Positions 2 through 18,609 of a DNA stretch of 64,000 nucleotides are shown one piece after another. Position 1 is the first letter of the stretch; every line of letters starts with the position of its first letter. The notes under the pieces were generated by a model. It saw only the letters and a program-made list of their open reading frames with translations, did no database searches and was not told where the DNA came from. Source of the DNA: a virus (taxonomy: Duplodnaviria; Caudoviricetes); the IMG/VR virus record IMGVR_UViG_3300042870_001240; one strand, 5' to 3'. A program made the position numbers and the translations under genes.

Positions 2-151
2 TATGTAACTAAATTTACAATATACCAACCAAACATAAACATAATATTATCTAATGACTACATCGTTGAAAAGGGAGACTTACAAGTAGATTTAGGTTTT
101 GCTTTTGATAACATAGTAATGTATTCAGACGATATCTCAGGAGACAAATGA
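2..151 (+). CDS. 3' fragment of hypothetical protein
   Basis: Open frame from the window edge (YVTKF...ISGDK*); its TGA overlaps the ATG at 148 (ATGA). Confidence 0.55.
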   Translation, partial: YVTKFTIYQPNINIILSNDYIVEKGDLQVDLGFAFDNIVMYSDDISGDK

Positions 152-474
152 AATATATAATAACAGAAAATAAGTTAAACAATGTCGCGTTAAGTTGGAT
201 GAATCAAAACTTCAGTCCATACCAGTTAGAAATTTTTGAATCTGAAAAATATCCAAATTCTGTTTTTTTTAGAAAAAATGGAAAAGTTGTGATGCAACAA
301 GATAAAAAATCTAAGTTTTTTTGGTTTGATTATGATAAAATTTGGTCATTTTTTAAATTGTTTTTTGGTATGCAATACCCACAAATACAAGACGTTCTGA
401 ACTACTGGTTGGAGGATACTTTCAAATTAGAGGGTTATACACCTAATCCCTACGAATTAACATATACACTTTAG
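148..474 (+). CDS. Array-linked small protein, paralog A (108 aa)
   Basis: 73/99 identical to 18295-18609 by manual alignment up to GYTP; LEDTFKLEGYTP is encoded by repeat 408-443. Confidence 0.85.
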   Translation: MKYIITENKLNNVALSWMNQNFSPYQLEIFESEKYPNSVFFRKNGKVVMQQDKKSKFFWFDYDKIWSFFKLFFGMQYPQIQDVLNYWLEDTFKLEGYTPNPYELTYTL

Positions 475-497
475 TTGGAGAATACCCTCAAATTAAA
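408..497 (+). CRISPR. CRISPR-like mini-array A: repeat, 30-nt spacer, truncated repeat
   Basis: GTTGGAGGATACTTTCAAATTAGAGGGTTATACACC (408-443), spacer 444-473, partial repeat GTTGGAGAATACCCTCAAATTAAA (474-497). Confidence 0.65.
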
Positions 498-507
498 ATA
501 AAAAGAA

Positions 508-891
508 ATGAAATATATAATAACAGAAAATAAAATGTATAACACGTTTTCATCTTTCCTAACTTCATTAGGGTTAAAGGACGTTATGTCACATGGTAAT
601 GGTTTAGATAGTTGTTATTATCCTGTTGAGTGGTTTGAATACGACTATGATGAGGATGGGTATGAACCAGCACCTTGTTTATTCAGATACTTTAATAATG
701 GAAAAGATTACAGTGAATGGCATGGAGTAAGTGATACTTATTCAAATCAAGATTACCCGATAATTGAGTTGGATTGGGAAATGTATAAACAAATTGAGGA
801 TTTATTTGGTGAAAAAACGATTACTGAGTTTGGTCCTAAATTTTTTCAAAATGTTGTAAATCAAGAAGTTAAAACTATAGTATCAGAGTAA
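508..891 (+). CDS. Hypothetical protein with MKYIITENK N-terminus
   Basis: First 26 nt identical to the 148 gene; body unrelated; no repeat at its 3' end. Confidence 0.8.
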   Translation: MKYIITENKMYNTFSSFLTSLGLKDVMSHGNGLDSCYYPVEWFEYDYDEDGYEPAPCLFRYFNNGKDYSEWHGVSDTYSNQDYPIIELDWEMYKQIEDLFGEKTITEFGPKFFQNVVNQEVKTIVSE

Positions 892-3061: not shown

Positions 3062-3520
3062 TTATTTTGACCTGTCAATTATAACATAAATAGTATCAAT
3101 TATTTTACCAGTAACTTGTGGCGTGTTTTGATTTTTACCATTAAAAACATTACCGAAATTCTTTTCTAAAACTTCGCACTTTTCTATAAAATGAGATGTT
3201 TCACCACGATTATTAAACCAATTTTTACCAAAAGTTTCGTGATAAACAAGTTTAACTTTCCATCCAAATTGAGCTGCACTATCAATTGTTTTAATCAATT
3301 CTTCTGGCTCATTGTCGTTATCTACTGAAAAATCAAATGGAACTGAACTATTCATACCTGTTTGTGTAACATTTAAATGCCCTTCGTGGCTTTTCCATAT
3401 TGCTCCACTTTTTGAGAATTGAGTTACCACCCCAATTCTTTCACCGTTTGCATAATTTTCGGAACAACTTTGTATCATCAATGTAGCCGATGCAATCGCT
3501 ATTAAAAATAATTTTTTCAT
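3062..3520 (-). CDS. Bacteroidota-type lipoprotein
   Basis: Lipobox-like MIQSC; NGERIGVVTQFSKSG...KSHEG motif. Confidence 0.65.
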   Translation of the reverse strand: MKKLFLIAIASATLMIQSCSENYANGERIGVVTQFSKSGAIWKSHEGHLNVTQTGMNSSVPFDFSVDNDNEPEELIKTIDSAAQFGWKVKLVYHETFGKNWFNNRGETSHFIEKCEVLEKNFGNVFNGKNQNTPQVTGKIIDTIYVIIDRSK

Positions 3521-3609: not shown

Positions 3610-3927
3610 TTAATACCCTTCCCCTGTTTTGTTAATAAAATCAACTCCGTTTTCTTTTGCAAACTCAGATACCAGTTGTTCAACTAAATCTTTATCCATT
3701 TTTCCATAATCAACAGAATAACCATAAACTTCGATTCCAATATCTGACCAACAAACTCGTCCTCCACCACGAACTCTCCAATCCTTTAGTTCAGGTTCTT
3801 CTTTTCTAAAATTATTTGCAACCTCTTGATGAAACTCACCGTAACCTGAACGAAATACAAATTCACCCTCGTTTTCAAGGATAACACATTTATGAACCGA
3901 ATCTTTTTTAATTATAACTTTTTCCAT
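3610..3927 (-). CDS. Janus/Ocnus (PHPT1)-like phosphohistidine phosphatase
   Basis: EFH and GGGRV...IEVYGYSVDYG resemble human PHPT1 EYH and GGGRI...IHVYGYSMAYG. Confidence 0.65.
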   Translation of the reverse strand: MEKVIIKKDSVHKCVILENEGEFVFRSGYGEFHQEVANNFRKEEPELKDWRVRGGGRVCWSDIGIEVYGYSVDYGKMDKDLVEQLVSEFAKENGVDFINKTGEGY

Positions 3928-3931
3928 AAAA

Positions 3932-3963
3932 CAAATTTACAAATTAATATTTATATTTCCAAA
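3932..3963 (-). promoter_or_regulatory. Bacteroidota sigma70-type promoter
   Basis: TTTG-N20-TAAATTTG upstream of 3927. Confidence 0.7.
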
Positions 3964-4044
3964 TATAACCCATTAAATAATTTAAACCAAATCGAAATTA
4001 TTCTTCATAATACAAAGGTATGGATTATATTTTAATTTTACAAG

Positions 4045-4552: not shown

Positions 4553-5086
4553 TTATTTTTTTCTTTCCGATAATTTTCTAACAATCGGTAACTGTTCTTC
4601 AACAATCACTTGATATACTTTTGGTAAATAGAAATGTTTATACCATATAAGCACATCTTCAACACCATCAAACACTTCTTTAGTCTTTAAACGGTTATAA
4701 ACATCACCATAATACCATAACTCAATTTTATCATCATCTGTTATCTCCTTATAATACTGAATTTCCACAGGTATTCCTGACTCTCCTTGCCAAAATGGTG
4801 TAGCATAAACAAAAACTTTTTCTTTTCTCTCATTGGATACAAGTATTCCGTCCCAACCAAAAGCTCCTGACATATTGTCAATAGAAATTCCGAATTCTTT
4901 ATATTGTTTAGGTAACTTTCCCTCTGACATTAATTCTATTAACACCGTATTGGCTAACCCAGTATCAATAGTTATTTCACTAATGTGAATTAACTCAACA
5001 GGATTTATACCTGCGATTTTCGAGGCATCATAAATTCCATGTGTCTCAATTAAATTTAATAACTGTTGTCGTCTTTTATCTGTCAT
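4553..5086 (-). CDS. Hypothetical protein
   Basis: 177-aa ORF; ATATTTAT upstream. Confidence 0.75.
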   Translation of the reverse strand: MTDKRRQQLLNLIETHGIYDASKIAGINPVELIHISEITIDTGLANTVLIELMSEGKLPKQYKEFGISIDNMSGAFGWDGILVSNERKEKVFVYATPFWQGESGIPVEIQYYKEITDDDKIELWYYGDVYNRLKTKEVFDGVEDVLIWYKHFYLPKVYQVIVEEQLPIVRKLSERKK

Positions 5087-5113
5087 TAATAATAAATATA
5101 AGTATTTATAGTT

Positions 5114-5770
5114 ATGAATAGACTACTTTATATATATTTTCACAAATTTTTAAAACCTTCATATGATTTTCATGGGTTAACACTTAGACCTAATTTCTTA
5201 CCTAATGAAGGACTAATACGTTGGTCTGTCGAAAACCCTCAGGATAAATCATATTACATGGAGACATTGATTGCTTTTACAGAGGAACTTTTTATTACTT
5301 TTTGTCACCTTCTTGAGGGTGAAATCGGGTCAGGTTTTTATCGTAATAATCGTAGATATGCCTGTAGTTTTGAACAAACCAATAAGTATTATTACCTTAA
5401 TAAATCGGATGACCAAAAATTATTAAACAGTATTAAACAAATTACTAAAATTGATTACAAAAATATATTTTATAGTGATGTTGAATGTACCTATGTTAAT
5501 ATTTACCCAGCAGAAGATTTTACGATAACAATTGGAATGAAGCTTTTAAATCCTCATAATGAACAACATTCCAAATTGATTAACACTGAATTATCTGAAG
5601 CTATATTTGAATTGATTGAGGATGATTTTTTTTACAGTGACTATCTATTTGATTTATTTCACCCCGTAATAAATGTCATTACAAACCTACCCTTATTGTA
5701 CGACCATACCTGGATGTTTTTTACTACTAGTGTTGATTTCAGAGATAAAAACAATATAAAAATTAAATAA
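5114..5770 (+). CDS. Hypothetical protein
   Basis: 218-aa ORF; GTATTTATA at 5102-5110. Confidence 0.75.
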   Translation: MNRLLYIYFHKFLKPSYDFHGLTLRPNFLPNEGLIRWSVENPQDKSYYMETLIAFTEELFITFCHLLEGEIGSGFYRNNRRYACSFEQTNKYYYLNKSDDQKLLNSIKQITKIDYKNIFYSDVECTYVNIYPAEDFTITIGMKLLNPHNEQHSKLINTELSEAIFELIEDDFFYSDYLFDLFHPVINVITNLPLLYDHTWMFFTTSVDFRDKNNIKIK

Positions 5771-5799
5771 TTTTAATCAATTCTTATTTCTTATAAAAC

Positions 5800-6186
5800 T
5801 TAAGAATTCAATATCGTAAAGTCAAAATCATAATCAATACAAACATGAGTTAATATTGATTCAACCTCTCTAACTAAATCTTCACCTAACTCATCCCATA
5901 TTCTTTCGTAAACATCGTCTTGTCTAAATCCATGTTCCCACATATCATCAACCCCTAAAGAAACTTTAATTGGTTGGATGTATATTGTTCCATCAAATAA
6001 ACACACAACAGGGTCATTATTTTTCCATAATGAAACTTTCTTAACCTTATATTCAATGTGAACATCAACTCGGTCATCATCACTACTTGAATAGGGCATC
6101 GAATACCAAGTGTCAAATTCATTTTTGTCCTTTAATAATTTATGAACCATTTCAATAGTTCGTTCAGTGTGTTTGTCCATTTCCAT
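5800..6186 (-). CDS. Hypothetical protein
   Basis: 128-aa ORF. Confidence 0.7.
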   Translation of the reverse strand: MEMDKHTERTIEMVHKLLKDKNEFDTWYSMPYSSSDDDRVDVHIEYKVKKVSLWKNNDPVVCLFDGTIYIQPIKVSLGVDDMWEHGFRQDDVYERIWDELGEDLVREVESILTHVCIDYDFDFTILNS

Positions 6187-13860: not shown

Positions 13861-13883
13861 ATTATTTATTTTTATTTATTTGT

Positions 13884-13955
13884 AGTCAGGACAGGATTCG
13901 AACCTATACAATAGAGCAATCGCTCAAAGCGTTTAACCAATTTCGCCACCTGACT
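13884..13955 (-). tRNA. tRNA-like element 1 (non-canonical anticodon arm)
   Basis: AGTCAGG/CCTGACT acceptor, GCG/CGC D-arm, ATAGG-TTCGAAT-CCTGT T-arm; anticodon loop 4-6 nt; no encoded CCA. Confidence 0.6.
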
Positions 13956-14032: not shown

Positions 14033-14138
14033 TGGTAGTCAGGACAGGAATCGAACCTGTAACTTCTTTGTCATACAGAGTGCCATTAGCTGTTATCTCA
14101 ACCTTGATGGTGATACGTTACCACTACGCCACCTGACT
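14033..14138 (-). tRNA. tRNA-like element 2 (expanded, ACCA end)
   Basis: Same acceptor stem, GCGT-AGTGGTA-ACGT D-arm, ACAGG-TTCGATT-CCTGT T-arm; irregular anticodon arm plus ~35-nt extra region. Confidence 0.6.
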
Positions 14139-16853: not shown

Positions 16854-16955
16854 GGTGTTAGACCCTTCAAATTATAGGTCTCTTCCAACTATAAAGAACG
16901 CAGGTTATTATTTGAAAAAGGTGTTAGACCCTTTAAATTATAGGTCTCTTCCAAC
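16854..16955 (-). CRISPR. CRISPR-like mini-array B: two 36-nt repeats, one 30-nt spacer
   Basis: GTTGGAAGAGACCTATAATTT(A/G)AAGGGTCTAACACC at 16920-16955 and 16854-16889; spacer 16890-16919. Confidence 0.75.
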
Positions 16956-17197
16956 CAGTATGTTATAATACCCTTCATTTGTTCATATTCCAACCCAAAA
17001 AAGGATTTTAAAAACGACCAAATTTCATTGTAATTTATATAAACATACCCATTTTTTTTATCCTGATAATAATAAAATAATGGTAATCTATCTTCATTAA
17101 CATAAATTGTTCTATCACCCTTAACTATTGGTTTTAAATTACCAAATTTATCGTTAAGCCATGTTATCACGACCTTATCTAATTTATTTTTAATCAT
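16889..17197 (-). CDS. Array-linked small protein, paralog B (102 aa)
   Basis: QDKK...IWSF...FFG..Y...YWLEETYNLKGLTP shared with A and C. Confidence 0.85.
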   Translation of the reverse strand: MIKNKLDKVVITWLNDKFGNLKPIVKGDRTIYVNEDRLPLFYYYQDKKNGYVYINYNEIWSFLKSFFGLEYEQMKGIITYWLEETYNLKGLTPFSNNNLRSL

Positions 17198-17215
17198 TTT
17201 ATCTTTAATTCTTTA

Positions 17216-17641
17216 TTATATAGATTGTTTGGATTCCCTATCTAAATCTCGTAATTTAATAGAATTTCTTTTATCCCATAGTTTTTTACCTTTAGCCAAC
17301 ACAATATCAACCTTCAATAATCCCCTGTCATTCTCATATAATACATGAGGAATGATTGTATATCCCTTAACCAACTCTGATTCAAGTTTTCTTAATTGTT
17401 TTTTCTTCAATAACAATTTTTTATCGGTAGCAATATTATCATTCCCAATTCCTTGGATAAGAACCCCTTTCATATATAACTCCCCATTATTAAAATAACA
17501 GAACGAGTCAGTCATAGAGACTTTCCCTTCTCGGATTCTCTTAACCTCAACACCAGTCAATTTAATACCCGCCAAGAATGTTTCCTCAATAAAATACTCA
17601 AACTTAACTTTTTTATTCTCAATACGAACTTTTATCTTCAT
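17216..17641 (-). CDS. smpB: SsrA-binding protein SmpB
   Basis: FEYFIEETFLAGIKLTGVEVK...KKLLL...AKGKKLWDKR; probable start at 17641. Confidence 0.9.
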   Translation of the reverse strand: MKIKVRIENKKVKFEYFIEETFLAGIKLTGVEVKRIREGKVSMTDSFCYFNNGELYMKGVLIQGIGNDNIATDKKLLLKKKQLRKLESELVKGYTIIPHVLYENDRGLLKVDIVLAKGKKLWDKRNSIKLRDLDRESKQSI

Positions 17642-17791
17642 AAACACAAAGATAAATATAAAAAACAAAAAACCCTAACAAATTTTTACATTCACCAGGG
17701 TTTAATATTAACCAACTAAGAAAGGGGTCGTTGGGACTATTTAGGTTATAAATATAACAAATTTTTTAAAAAGAAAAAGATATTTATAAAT

Positions 17792-18133
17792 ATGATATTA
17801 AAAATCAACGATAACAAATTTAAAGTGATGGTAATGATGACTCAAAAAGATACTCAAAAGGGTATGATGGGTCGTGACTTTGATTCTAACTTTAATGGTA
17901 TGTTATTTCTAATGGACAAAGGTCCTCACGGTTTTTGGATGAAGGATTGTATTATCCCATTGGATATTATTTTTATTGACGGTAATACAATAACTAAAAT
18001 ACACCATAGTTGTCCTCCATGTAAATCGGAAGACTGTCCTAGTTATGTCGGAACAGGAGATACTATTTTAGAACTTAGAGGCGGTACTTGCGGGGAATTA
18101 AGTATTAAAGAGGGGGATAAGATTCTATACTAA
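17792..18133 (+). CDS. DUF192 family protein
   Basis: GMMGR...GMLF...FWMKDCIIPLDIIFID...ILELRGG. Confidence 0.85.
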   Translation: MILKINDNKFKVMVMMTQKDTQKGMMGRDFDSNFNGMLFLMDKGPHGFWMKDCIIPLDIIFIDGNTITKIHHSCPPCKSEDCPSYVGTGDTILELRGGTCGELSIKEGDKILY

Positions 18134-18349
18134 TTTGAGAGTATCCTCCAACTGGATGTAATGGAGCGAATTGCGAAGCGTGGTGTATAACCCTTTAATT
18201 TGAGAGTCTCTTCCAACTAGTCATGCTTTCCGCTGAACCGTCTTTCAGGTGTATAACCCTTTAATTTGAGAGTCTCTTCCAACTACTAACGCATTCAAGA
18301 CTGGAAATGGCTCGGTGTATAACCCTTTAATTTGAGAGTCTCTTCCAAC
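18131..18349 (-). CRISPR. CRISPR-like mini-array C: three identical 36-nt repeats, one truncated repeat, spacers of 30/30/29 nt
   Basis: GTTGGAAGAGACTCTCAAATTAAAGGGTTATACACC at 18314-18349, 18248-18283 and 18182-18217; partial repeat 18131-18152. Confidence 0.85.
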
Positions 18350-18609
18350 CAGTAACTCAGAAATTCCTGTATTTCTTGGTATTCCATACCAAAAAACGAT
18401 TCAAAAAATGACCAAATTTCATCATAATCAAACAAAAAATCTTTATTTTTTTTATCCTGCTCCATCACAACTTCTCCATTTTTTTTAAAAAAAATTGAAT
18501 TAGGATATTTTTCAGATTTAACAATTTCTAACTGGTCTAAACCAAAGTTTTTGTTCATCCAACTTAACACGACATTGTTTAACTTATTTTCCGTTATTAT
18601 ATATTTCAT
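18295..18609 (-). CDS. Array-linked small protein, paralog C (104 aa)
   Basis: LEETLKLKGYTP comes from the repeat; SHFQS* comes from spacer 1. Confidence 0.85.
   Translation of the reverse strand: MKYIITENKLNNVVLSWMNKNFGLDQLEIVKSEKYPNSIFFKKNGEVVMEQDKKNKDFLFDYDEIWSFFESFFGMEYQEIQEFLSYWLEETLKLKGYTPSHFQS

Follow-up and report, generated by a model that had tools for sequence, protein, structure and literature searches.

Why does a CRISPR-like repeat form the end of a phage protein, and is the stop codon that closes two such proteins built into the array? Both questions are raised by a 64,000-nucleotide stretch of DNA (the window) from a giant phage of lake water, with a GC content of about 31%. 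Three paralogous genes of approximately 100 amino acids (aa), which start with MKYIITENK or similar and end with W-L-E-E/D-T-x-x-L-K/E-G-x-T-P, each have a 36-nt repeat for their final 12 codons. The repeat opens with the third base of the Trp codon, closes with the CC of the Pro codon, and recurs downstream, with unique spacers of 29–30 nt between the copies; the repeat pattern matched six times in the window and never in 100 shuffled versions. The initial annotation had proposed a 66-nt period with a TAG built into the spacer/repeat junctions. The period was borne out in the sequence of all three loci (36 + 30 = 66 nt, or 22 codons), and so was the proposed Pro-wobble junction: the repeat ends in CC, the Pro codon is completed by the first spacer base, and the frame is kept by any 30-nt spacer.

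The loci were named by their position in the window, and the labels A, B, and C may differ from those used in the initial annotation. On the plus strand, a 108-aa gene (148..474), placed in the MKYIITENK family by alignment, has as its last codons the first repeat (408..443, encoding (W)LEDTFKLEGYTP) and a 30-nt spacer that ends in TA (444..473; tail NPYELTYTL), and it stops at the junction TAG at 472–474. A degenerate terminal repeat copy of approximately 24 nt (474..500) leads into an in-frame TAA at 498–500, and the ATG of the next paralog lies at 508. On the minus strand, a 102-aa gene (16889..17197) contains its in-gene repeat at 16920..16955, encoding (W)LEETYNLKGLTP, followed by the 30-nt spacer A1, which also ends in TA (16890..16919; tail FSNNNLRSL). 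Its stop is the junction TAG at 16891–16889, and the full second repeat (16854..16889) differs from the in-gene copy by a single synonymous mismatch. Locus C, also on the minus strand, has three identical 36-nt repeats (18349–18314, 18283–18248, and 18217–18182), two 30-nt spacers that both end in TA (18313–18284 and 18247–18218), and an oldest spacer of 29 nt that ends in CA and shifts the frame (18153..18181). The truncated, diverged terminal copy at this locus (18130..18152, start approximate) overlaps the stop of a convergent DUF192 gene (17792–18133, plus strand). The 104-aa gene of locus C (18295..18609) stops at a TGA inside spacer 1 and has the tail SHFQS; spacer 2 would translate as ERRFSGKHD, then TAG, and the earlier suggestion that loss of one unit would swap the first tail for the second is arithmetically correct. 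The predicted C-terminal peptides of the three genes are ...GYTPFSNNNLRSL, ...GYTPNPYELTYTL, and ...GYTPSHFQS.

Homologous loci were gathered with a protein query (36 from IMG/VR, 42 from lake metagenomes, and 8 from a second subfamily), and a complete 309-kb relative, G001, was added whole. In total, about 75 arrays and 145 distinct spacers were parsed, 140 of them from outside the window. The architecture of an in-gene repeat, a spacer of about 30 nt, further copies, and a last copy cut at approximately 22–24 nt was present in nearly all close homologs and many distant ones, and each of the arrays on the IMG/VR and lake-metagenome contigs carried its own gene's version of the repeat. One phage had at least six arrays, no two of them sharing a repeat. 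All spacers were 29–32 nt long, 104 of the 145 being exactly 30 nt (outside the window: 29 nt, 19; 30 nt, 100; 31 nt, 15; 32 nt, 6), and there was no similarity among them. The first and second repeat copies were identical in 23 of 39 arrays, against a mean difference of 13.5 of 36 nt between arrays. The arrays are also polarized: in five pairs of related loci (L026/L028, L060/L071, L059/L069, L083/L084, and L077/L079), the spacers at the trailer end are common to both members and those at the gene end differ. These data show that array growth takes place at the gene end, each step adding a repeat plus approximately 30 nt. The terminal copy of only about 24 nt abuts native flanks, which simple duplication of the repeat leaves unexplained.

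We then turned to the TAG. The coordinates confirm a TA end for four of the window's five spacers, and they confirm that in genes A and B the junction TAG closes the frame after nine spacer-encoded residues. The TA ends are in excess of the internal TA frequency of spacers (7.4%; p = 1.4e-4, in a test chosen post hoc) and of the ends seen in other phages (Fisher 2.7e-4). Outside the window, only 10 of 140 distinct spacers (7.1%) ended in TA, which is the background frequency. Among the 100 non-window spacers of 30 nt, the only length that places TA plus G in frame, there were two. Chi-square tests on the last five positions gave no value below 0.05 for all non-window spacers or for window-type arrays; among the in-frame arrays described below, positions -5 and -3 reached p = 0.02 and 0.04, which was lost after correction for 30 tests. 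Spacer ends tabulated across homologous arrays are thus random in the larger sample. The TA excess in the window was singled out once the data had been seen, as one of many possible features in many phages. It is treated here as chance, with a smaller likelihood that it reflects a lineage-specific bias. Neither the TA ends nor the TAG is built into the system; both are coincidental or, at the very most, peculiar to the lineage.

A lineage-specific bias could take the form of a donor-end or integration motif of the window's own phage-host pair, either PAM/TAM-like, as had been suggested, or the product of a slipped cut. The window frequencies themselves favor such a motif, as do the close relatives of locus C (L054, L055, L057, and L058), which also have TA or AA ends, and the 32-nt spacers, all six of which end in AA or TA. 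These observations are outweighed by the background frequency elsewhere, by the C-type arrays outside the window, where TA ends 5 of 29 spacers, and by the unbiased positions -1 and -2. The flanks of the four bacterial donor sites described below, none of which derives from a window spacer, shared no motif, although four is a small number of sites. In E. coli type I-E systems, the PAM supplies the final base of the repeat, and such a PAM-derived junction base is constant across the spacers of one system. This is the kind of mechanism that the initial annotation had proposed for a fixed spacer end, but the spacer end of the phage arrays is not constant outside the window. The acquisition motif of the Flavobacterium columnare VI-B system, moreover, is upstream, at the leader-facing end rather than the end that carries TA (PMC8092290). 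We consider a TA motif improbable.

The second proposed cause was selection for termination, in which TA ends would be favored because they stop translation and cap the tail at nine residues, every spacer having once been first and translated. Genes A and B stop exactly at the junction, and with gene-proximal growth C1 and C2 would, from the polarity, each have been the first spacer once. TAG is otherwise a minor stop in the window, although a genuine one, ending 6 of 60 long open reading frames (ORFs). Recoding of TAG was rejected on that count, together with a coding density of 81% under the standard code and the lack of a suppressor tRNA in the window. Set against a cap, the stop fell at the junction TAG in only 3 of the 63 arrays with their first repeat in the gene, and two of the three were those of the window. 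Among the other genes, 19 continued into the truncated terminal copy and stopped there, 14 stopped within a spacer, 7 stopped in a non-terminal copy behind a frameshifting spacer, and 17 were open through everything fetched; some array genes run on into the following paralog as a fusion (L001). Window-type spacers tend, if at all, towards greater openness in the gene frame (48 of 70) than in the other two (43 and 36), and 51 of 52 spacers in the in-frame sister arrays are open. The nine-residue cap therefore holds for genes A and B but is not general, because any spacer of 29, 31, or 32 nt puts what follows out of frame and 19 genes stop only in the terminal copy. Selection for a stop at the junction appears distinctly improbable as the origin of the TA ends.

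The frame does matter in a second group of arrays, with repeats such as GGTGGAAGAGGTCTTAAATTGTAAGGTAAGCACAAC, comprising L030–L032, L114–L120, and two arrays of G001. The two kinds of array can share a contig, as L116 from the second group and the window-type array L006 do. All 52 distinct spacers of the second group are exactly 30 nt long, and 51 of them are free of stop codons in the gene frame; the other two frames are open in 30 and 17 spacers (p = 7e-17). The resulting ORFs extend for 127–264 aa across up to eight units, with the form [VEEVLNCKVxTT + 10 variable residues]n, and terminate in a degenerate half-repeat. Because every spacer has the same length and all but one are open, these arrays have clearly been kept readable as protein, with stops selected against. 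Window-type arrays are looser in spacer length (29–32 nt) and often lose the frame early. Given the avoidance of stops in the second group, and a gene frame that is no less open than the other frames in window-type arrays, the 66-nt, 22-codon unit is biologically relevant as a means of staying in frame and not as a built-in terminator.

The origin of the inserts was established for sister arrays. Spacers of L030 matched Crocinitomicaceae genomes at 31 of 31 and 30 of 30 nt (G463 and G512) and at 29 of 30 nt (G512) in a search of 301 genomes of this family. In the same genomes, spacer 5 of the window-type array L066 matched at 28 of 29 nt in two and at 26–27 of 29 nt in fifteen more, and its donor site lies inside a conserved oxidoreductase gene. 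Taken together, the donor sites fall in genes for a T9SS-secreted beta-lactamase-family protein, a methyltransferase-domain protein, and a pyridine-nucleotide-disulphide oxidoreductase, with one outside any long ORF. All three genic donors are in the sense orientation relative to array transcription, and two are in the phage's reading frame; because donor and phage share that frame, the phage peptide GVGIVSKKER is identical to the host peptide. These inserts are host chromosomal DNA.

Donors for the window spacers were sought in the same way. C1, C2, C3, and A1, each searched on its own, gave none; for A1 (16890..16919), this means none at three or fewer mismatches in the 301 Crocinitomicaceae genomes. 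Spacer B1, covered by local BLAST and an insensitive long-query search only, likewise gave none; the latter used a 16.6-kb query spanning B1 and A1 with two candidates scored per genome, a design insensitive for spacers. The whole locus-C array matched the 301 genomes only at 86–88% across repeat/spacer borders, which we judged to be chance, and BLASTN against 50,697 phage records returned chance-level matches only. Exact 24-mers of spacers C2 and C3 were absent from IMG/VR. No spacer matched a related virus in the phage collections or in 565 kb of related phage DNA: 113 spacers compared with those 565 kb of related loci and the window produced array self-matches only. The spacers of G001 had no donor in its own complete genome, and the L030 arrays had none in G006, a metagenome-assembled genome (MAG) that bears Cas13b.

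The donor matches bear directly on whether the arrays are CRISPR-like at all or are ordinary tandem repeats of coding sequence (a "false CRISPR"), made up of a conserved 12-aa part and a 10-aa part that varies. Ordinary repeats would account for a repeat that encodes an ordered part of the predicted fold, for the same C-terminal motif in array-less homologs, for the openness of the in-frame arrays, and for the absence of an RNA-structure signal. They are contradicted by spacers that exactly copy unrelated bacterial chromosomal loci, unless these reflect contamination or chimeric assemblies. Repeats that are identical even at synonymous sites flank spacers that share nothing, and L066, out of frame and with its gene stop in spacer 1, still has seven identical repeats; spacer turnover is also polarized. 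Simple tandem repetition is thus highly improbable. Variable repeats of the DGR type were also considered and rejected, since there is no template repeat and there are no A-specific changes. The arrays behave like CRISPR arrays, and an in-frame array of this type is real and unusual.

The closest known counterparts are the type VI-B (Cas13b) arrays of Bacteroidota, which likewise combine a 36-nt repeat and a 30-nt spacer in a 66-nt unit, with repeats that start with GTTGG or GGTGG and end with ACACC or ACAAC. One loose pattern matched both the window repeats and the Cas13b arrays of Bergeyella zoohelcum, two Capnocytophaga species, and a Crocinitomicaceae MAG, and the proteins adjoining those bacterial arrays scored 644–839 bits on the Cas13b model. 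One G001 repeat variant was identical to the Bergeyella repeat at 27 of 36 positions (hand count, ungapped alignment). Both kinds of array grow in a polarized manner at the upstream end, take many spacers from host chromosomes, and have no adjoining cas1 or cas2. In F. columnare, VI-B arrays that lack Cas1 are filled in trans by the Cas1–Cas2 of a II-C system, and many of their spacers are self-derived (PMC8092290).

The phage arrays differ from VI-B in that a protein gene contributes the first repeat as its own 3' end and ribosomes read the array, and in their number, at least six in one phage, every one with its own repeat. They also differ in that the complete relative lacks the proteins for adaptation and effector function: Cas1 (PF01867) and Cas13b (NF038190) were absent from G001 and from four partial relatives. 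The Cas13b search did recover the gene in G006 and G007, its positive controls. Neither protein was found among the 10 large window ORFs scanned. The likely host family, Crocinitomicaceae, does have Cas13b (G006). Among 185,579 species-representative bacterial genomes, no array had the window's repeat; only distinct Cas13b repeats matched.

The hairpin of the VI-B repeat is not conserved either. The Bergeyella repeat folded with z = -3.4, whereas the phage repeats gave z values between -1.95 and +1.2, no better than shuffles. Across 78 repeat variants, there was no covariation for a Cas13b-type hairpin, with pairing at 63% versus 64.6% in shuffles, and the hairpin pair 2:35 was broken in 70 of the 78. 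Poor folding, the lack of covariation, and the broken pair do not support a role as RNA (crRNA).

The repeat does appear to be part of a folded protein. For the locus-C protein, AlphaFold2 gave a model with a mean pLDDT of 90 from an alignment of 19 sequences, which predicts helix 1, a four-stranded sheet, helix 2, and helix 3. Residues W87–P99, encoded by the repeat, form the end of helix 3 and a short strand and are well ordered in the model (pLDDT 93). Homologs without an array retain the same W-x-E-x-x-[LYF]-x-[LIV] end, which, together with the predicted order, indicates that the first repeat is true coding sequence. No function for this family emerged from Pfam, PHROGs, or the ESM Atlas, and Foldseek found no match in the PDB at E ≤ 0.001.

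From these results, we think it probable that the loci are CRISPR-type arrays of VI-B/II-C format, in which the leader-proximal repeat doubles as the final 12 codons of a small phage gene and the TAG is incidental. New units, each consisting of a duplicated repeat and approximately 30 nt of captured DNA, would be added beside the coding domain. The likeliest agent is a Cas1–Cas2 complex of the Bacteroidota host acting in trans; we infer that a type II-C-like complex would accept the 3' end of the gene as a leader-repeat junction. The donor DNA would be largely host chromosome. Since 36 + 30 nt equals 22 codons, each 30-nt unit would lengthen the open frame, and the outcome at the ribosome would be set by the sequence and length of the spacer. 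Inserts would then be filtered by their translational effect; such filtering would probably be strong for the in-frame arrays and weak or absent for the window type, which may represent ectopic integration without benefit. Any benefit to the phage is as putative as the identity of the integrase, and we lean towards the protein tail rather than an RNA (decoy or guide) as its source because RNA structure is not conserved and stops are avoided.

A bolder extension, which we regard as tentative and rather unlikely, is that lake jumbo phages use CRISPR-type capture to write host-derived 10-residue cassettes into the C-terminal tails of small proteins that belong to a large family. Such an array would then be a protein-diversifying device and not (only) a store of guide RNAs, with stop-bearing spacers, such as those ending in TA, acting as a display switch.

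Two other classes of phage-borne repeat invite comparison. Virus-borne mini-CRISPR arrays have repeats identical to those of host arrays and spacers against related viruses (PMC6858448; reviewed in PMC11656645). The window arrays resemble them in being short, with 1–3 spacers, in a viral genome without cas genes. They differ in that no host array with the window repeat was found, the donors found are host chromosomal genes, and the arrays are gene fused. Racrs, the RNA anti-CRISPRs or solitary repeat units, are likewise CRISPR-repeat look-alikes on phage genomes, but they are non-coding small RNAs, whereas the arrays in phage genes are coding and accumulate spacers. By analogy with such units, the in-gene repeat might conceivably act as a decoy. 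No type VI units turned up in the Racr survey, for which ORFs were masked beforehand (PMC10651486), so repeats embedded in genes would have been invisible to it. In a full-text search of the literature, no account turned up of CRISPR arrays that are translated or fused to a gene, and such arrays are apparently unpublished.

A built-in TAG, if true, would have meant either an acquisition motif or a designed translational cap; as things stand, it offers nothing to build on and adds nothing general to the gene-fused arrays. The periodicity is what matters. With the first repeat inside the gene and a unit of 22 codons, each captured 30-nt piece joins an open reading frame, and in the sister arrays those pieces are host chromosomal DNA whose frame is kept open by selection.

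Beyond the arrays, the window encodes SmpB (17216–17668, minus strand), a DHH-family protein, SprB/T9SS-type proteins, and tRNA-Gln, in addition to the DUF192 protein. Only approximately 5% of the sampled window words were present in RNA runs. In 20 lake-water metagenome runs from 2020 to 2024, the window DNA was present at 93%–98% of sampled words.

Arrays of this kind also occur elsewhere in related phages. A complete 309-kb phage genome, G001, carries at least six (loci L097–L112; positions 3885–3985, 274810–275033, 291950–292221, 303335–303422, 305507–305728, and 308090–308377), and the repeat variant differs from array to array. Two of these arrays are open and in frame, and two others are frame-broken by spacers of 29 or 31 nt. 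In a further homologous locus (L001:3001–3687, equivalent to L059), the reading frame stays open across an array with two 30-nt spacers and continues into the following paralog, which yields a 228-aa fusion ORF.

Base composition was skewed at spacer position 2, where the first complete codon of the spacer begins. Among 140 spacers from all arrays outside the window, G was enriched (43 spacers) and T depleted (24 spacers; p = 1e-4); in the in-frame arrays, T occupied this position in only 5 of 50. The bias could reflect either avoidance of stop codons or an acquisition motif. All six 32-nt spacers in the parsed homologous arrays (L055, L057, L058, L064:807–905, the seventh spacer of L066, and the first of L085) end in AA or TA, and five of them are trailer-most, adjoining the truncated terminal repeat copy. 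This pattern may be a trace of the mode in which the first unit is laid down. Two different spacers from homologous loci (L077:2907–2936 and L079:40–69) have a 17-nt near-palindromic core in common, TTCGGAAATTCCGAACA, in opposite orientations; they look as if they derive from the same or a similar hairpin-containing donor.

A 152-aa gene in the window (3062–3520, minus strand) has no Pfam match, but a 468-nt DNA alignment pairs it at 75% identity with a Crocinitomicaceae genome (G653:C16, L138), a similarity that links the phage to this family as host. In a Crocinitomicaceae MAG, cas13b and a small ORF precede the VI-B array (locus L048, positions 4866–5400 and 5478–5836), and the cas13b-nearest repeat lacks its 5' part.

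The window also encodes tRNA-Gln(UUG) (13882–13955, minus strand), with a second tRNA-like match at 14036–14138 found by Rfam and not by ARAGORN, and SmpB (17216–17668, minus strand; PF01668, 138 bits). Directly behind the first array lies an array-less member of the wider paralog family (508–891, plus strand), which, like the gene bearing that array, starts with MKYIITENK.
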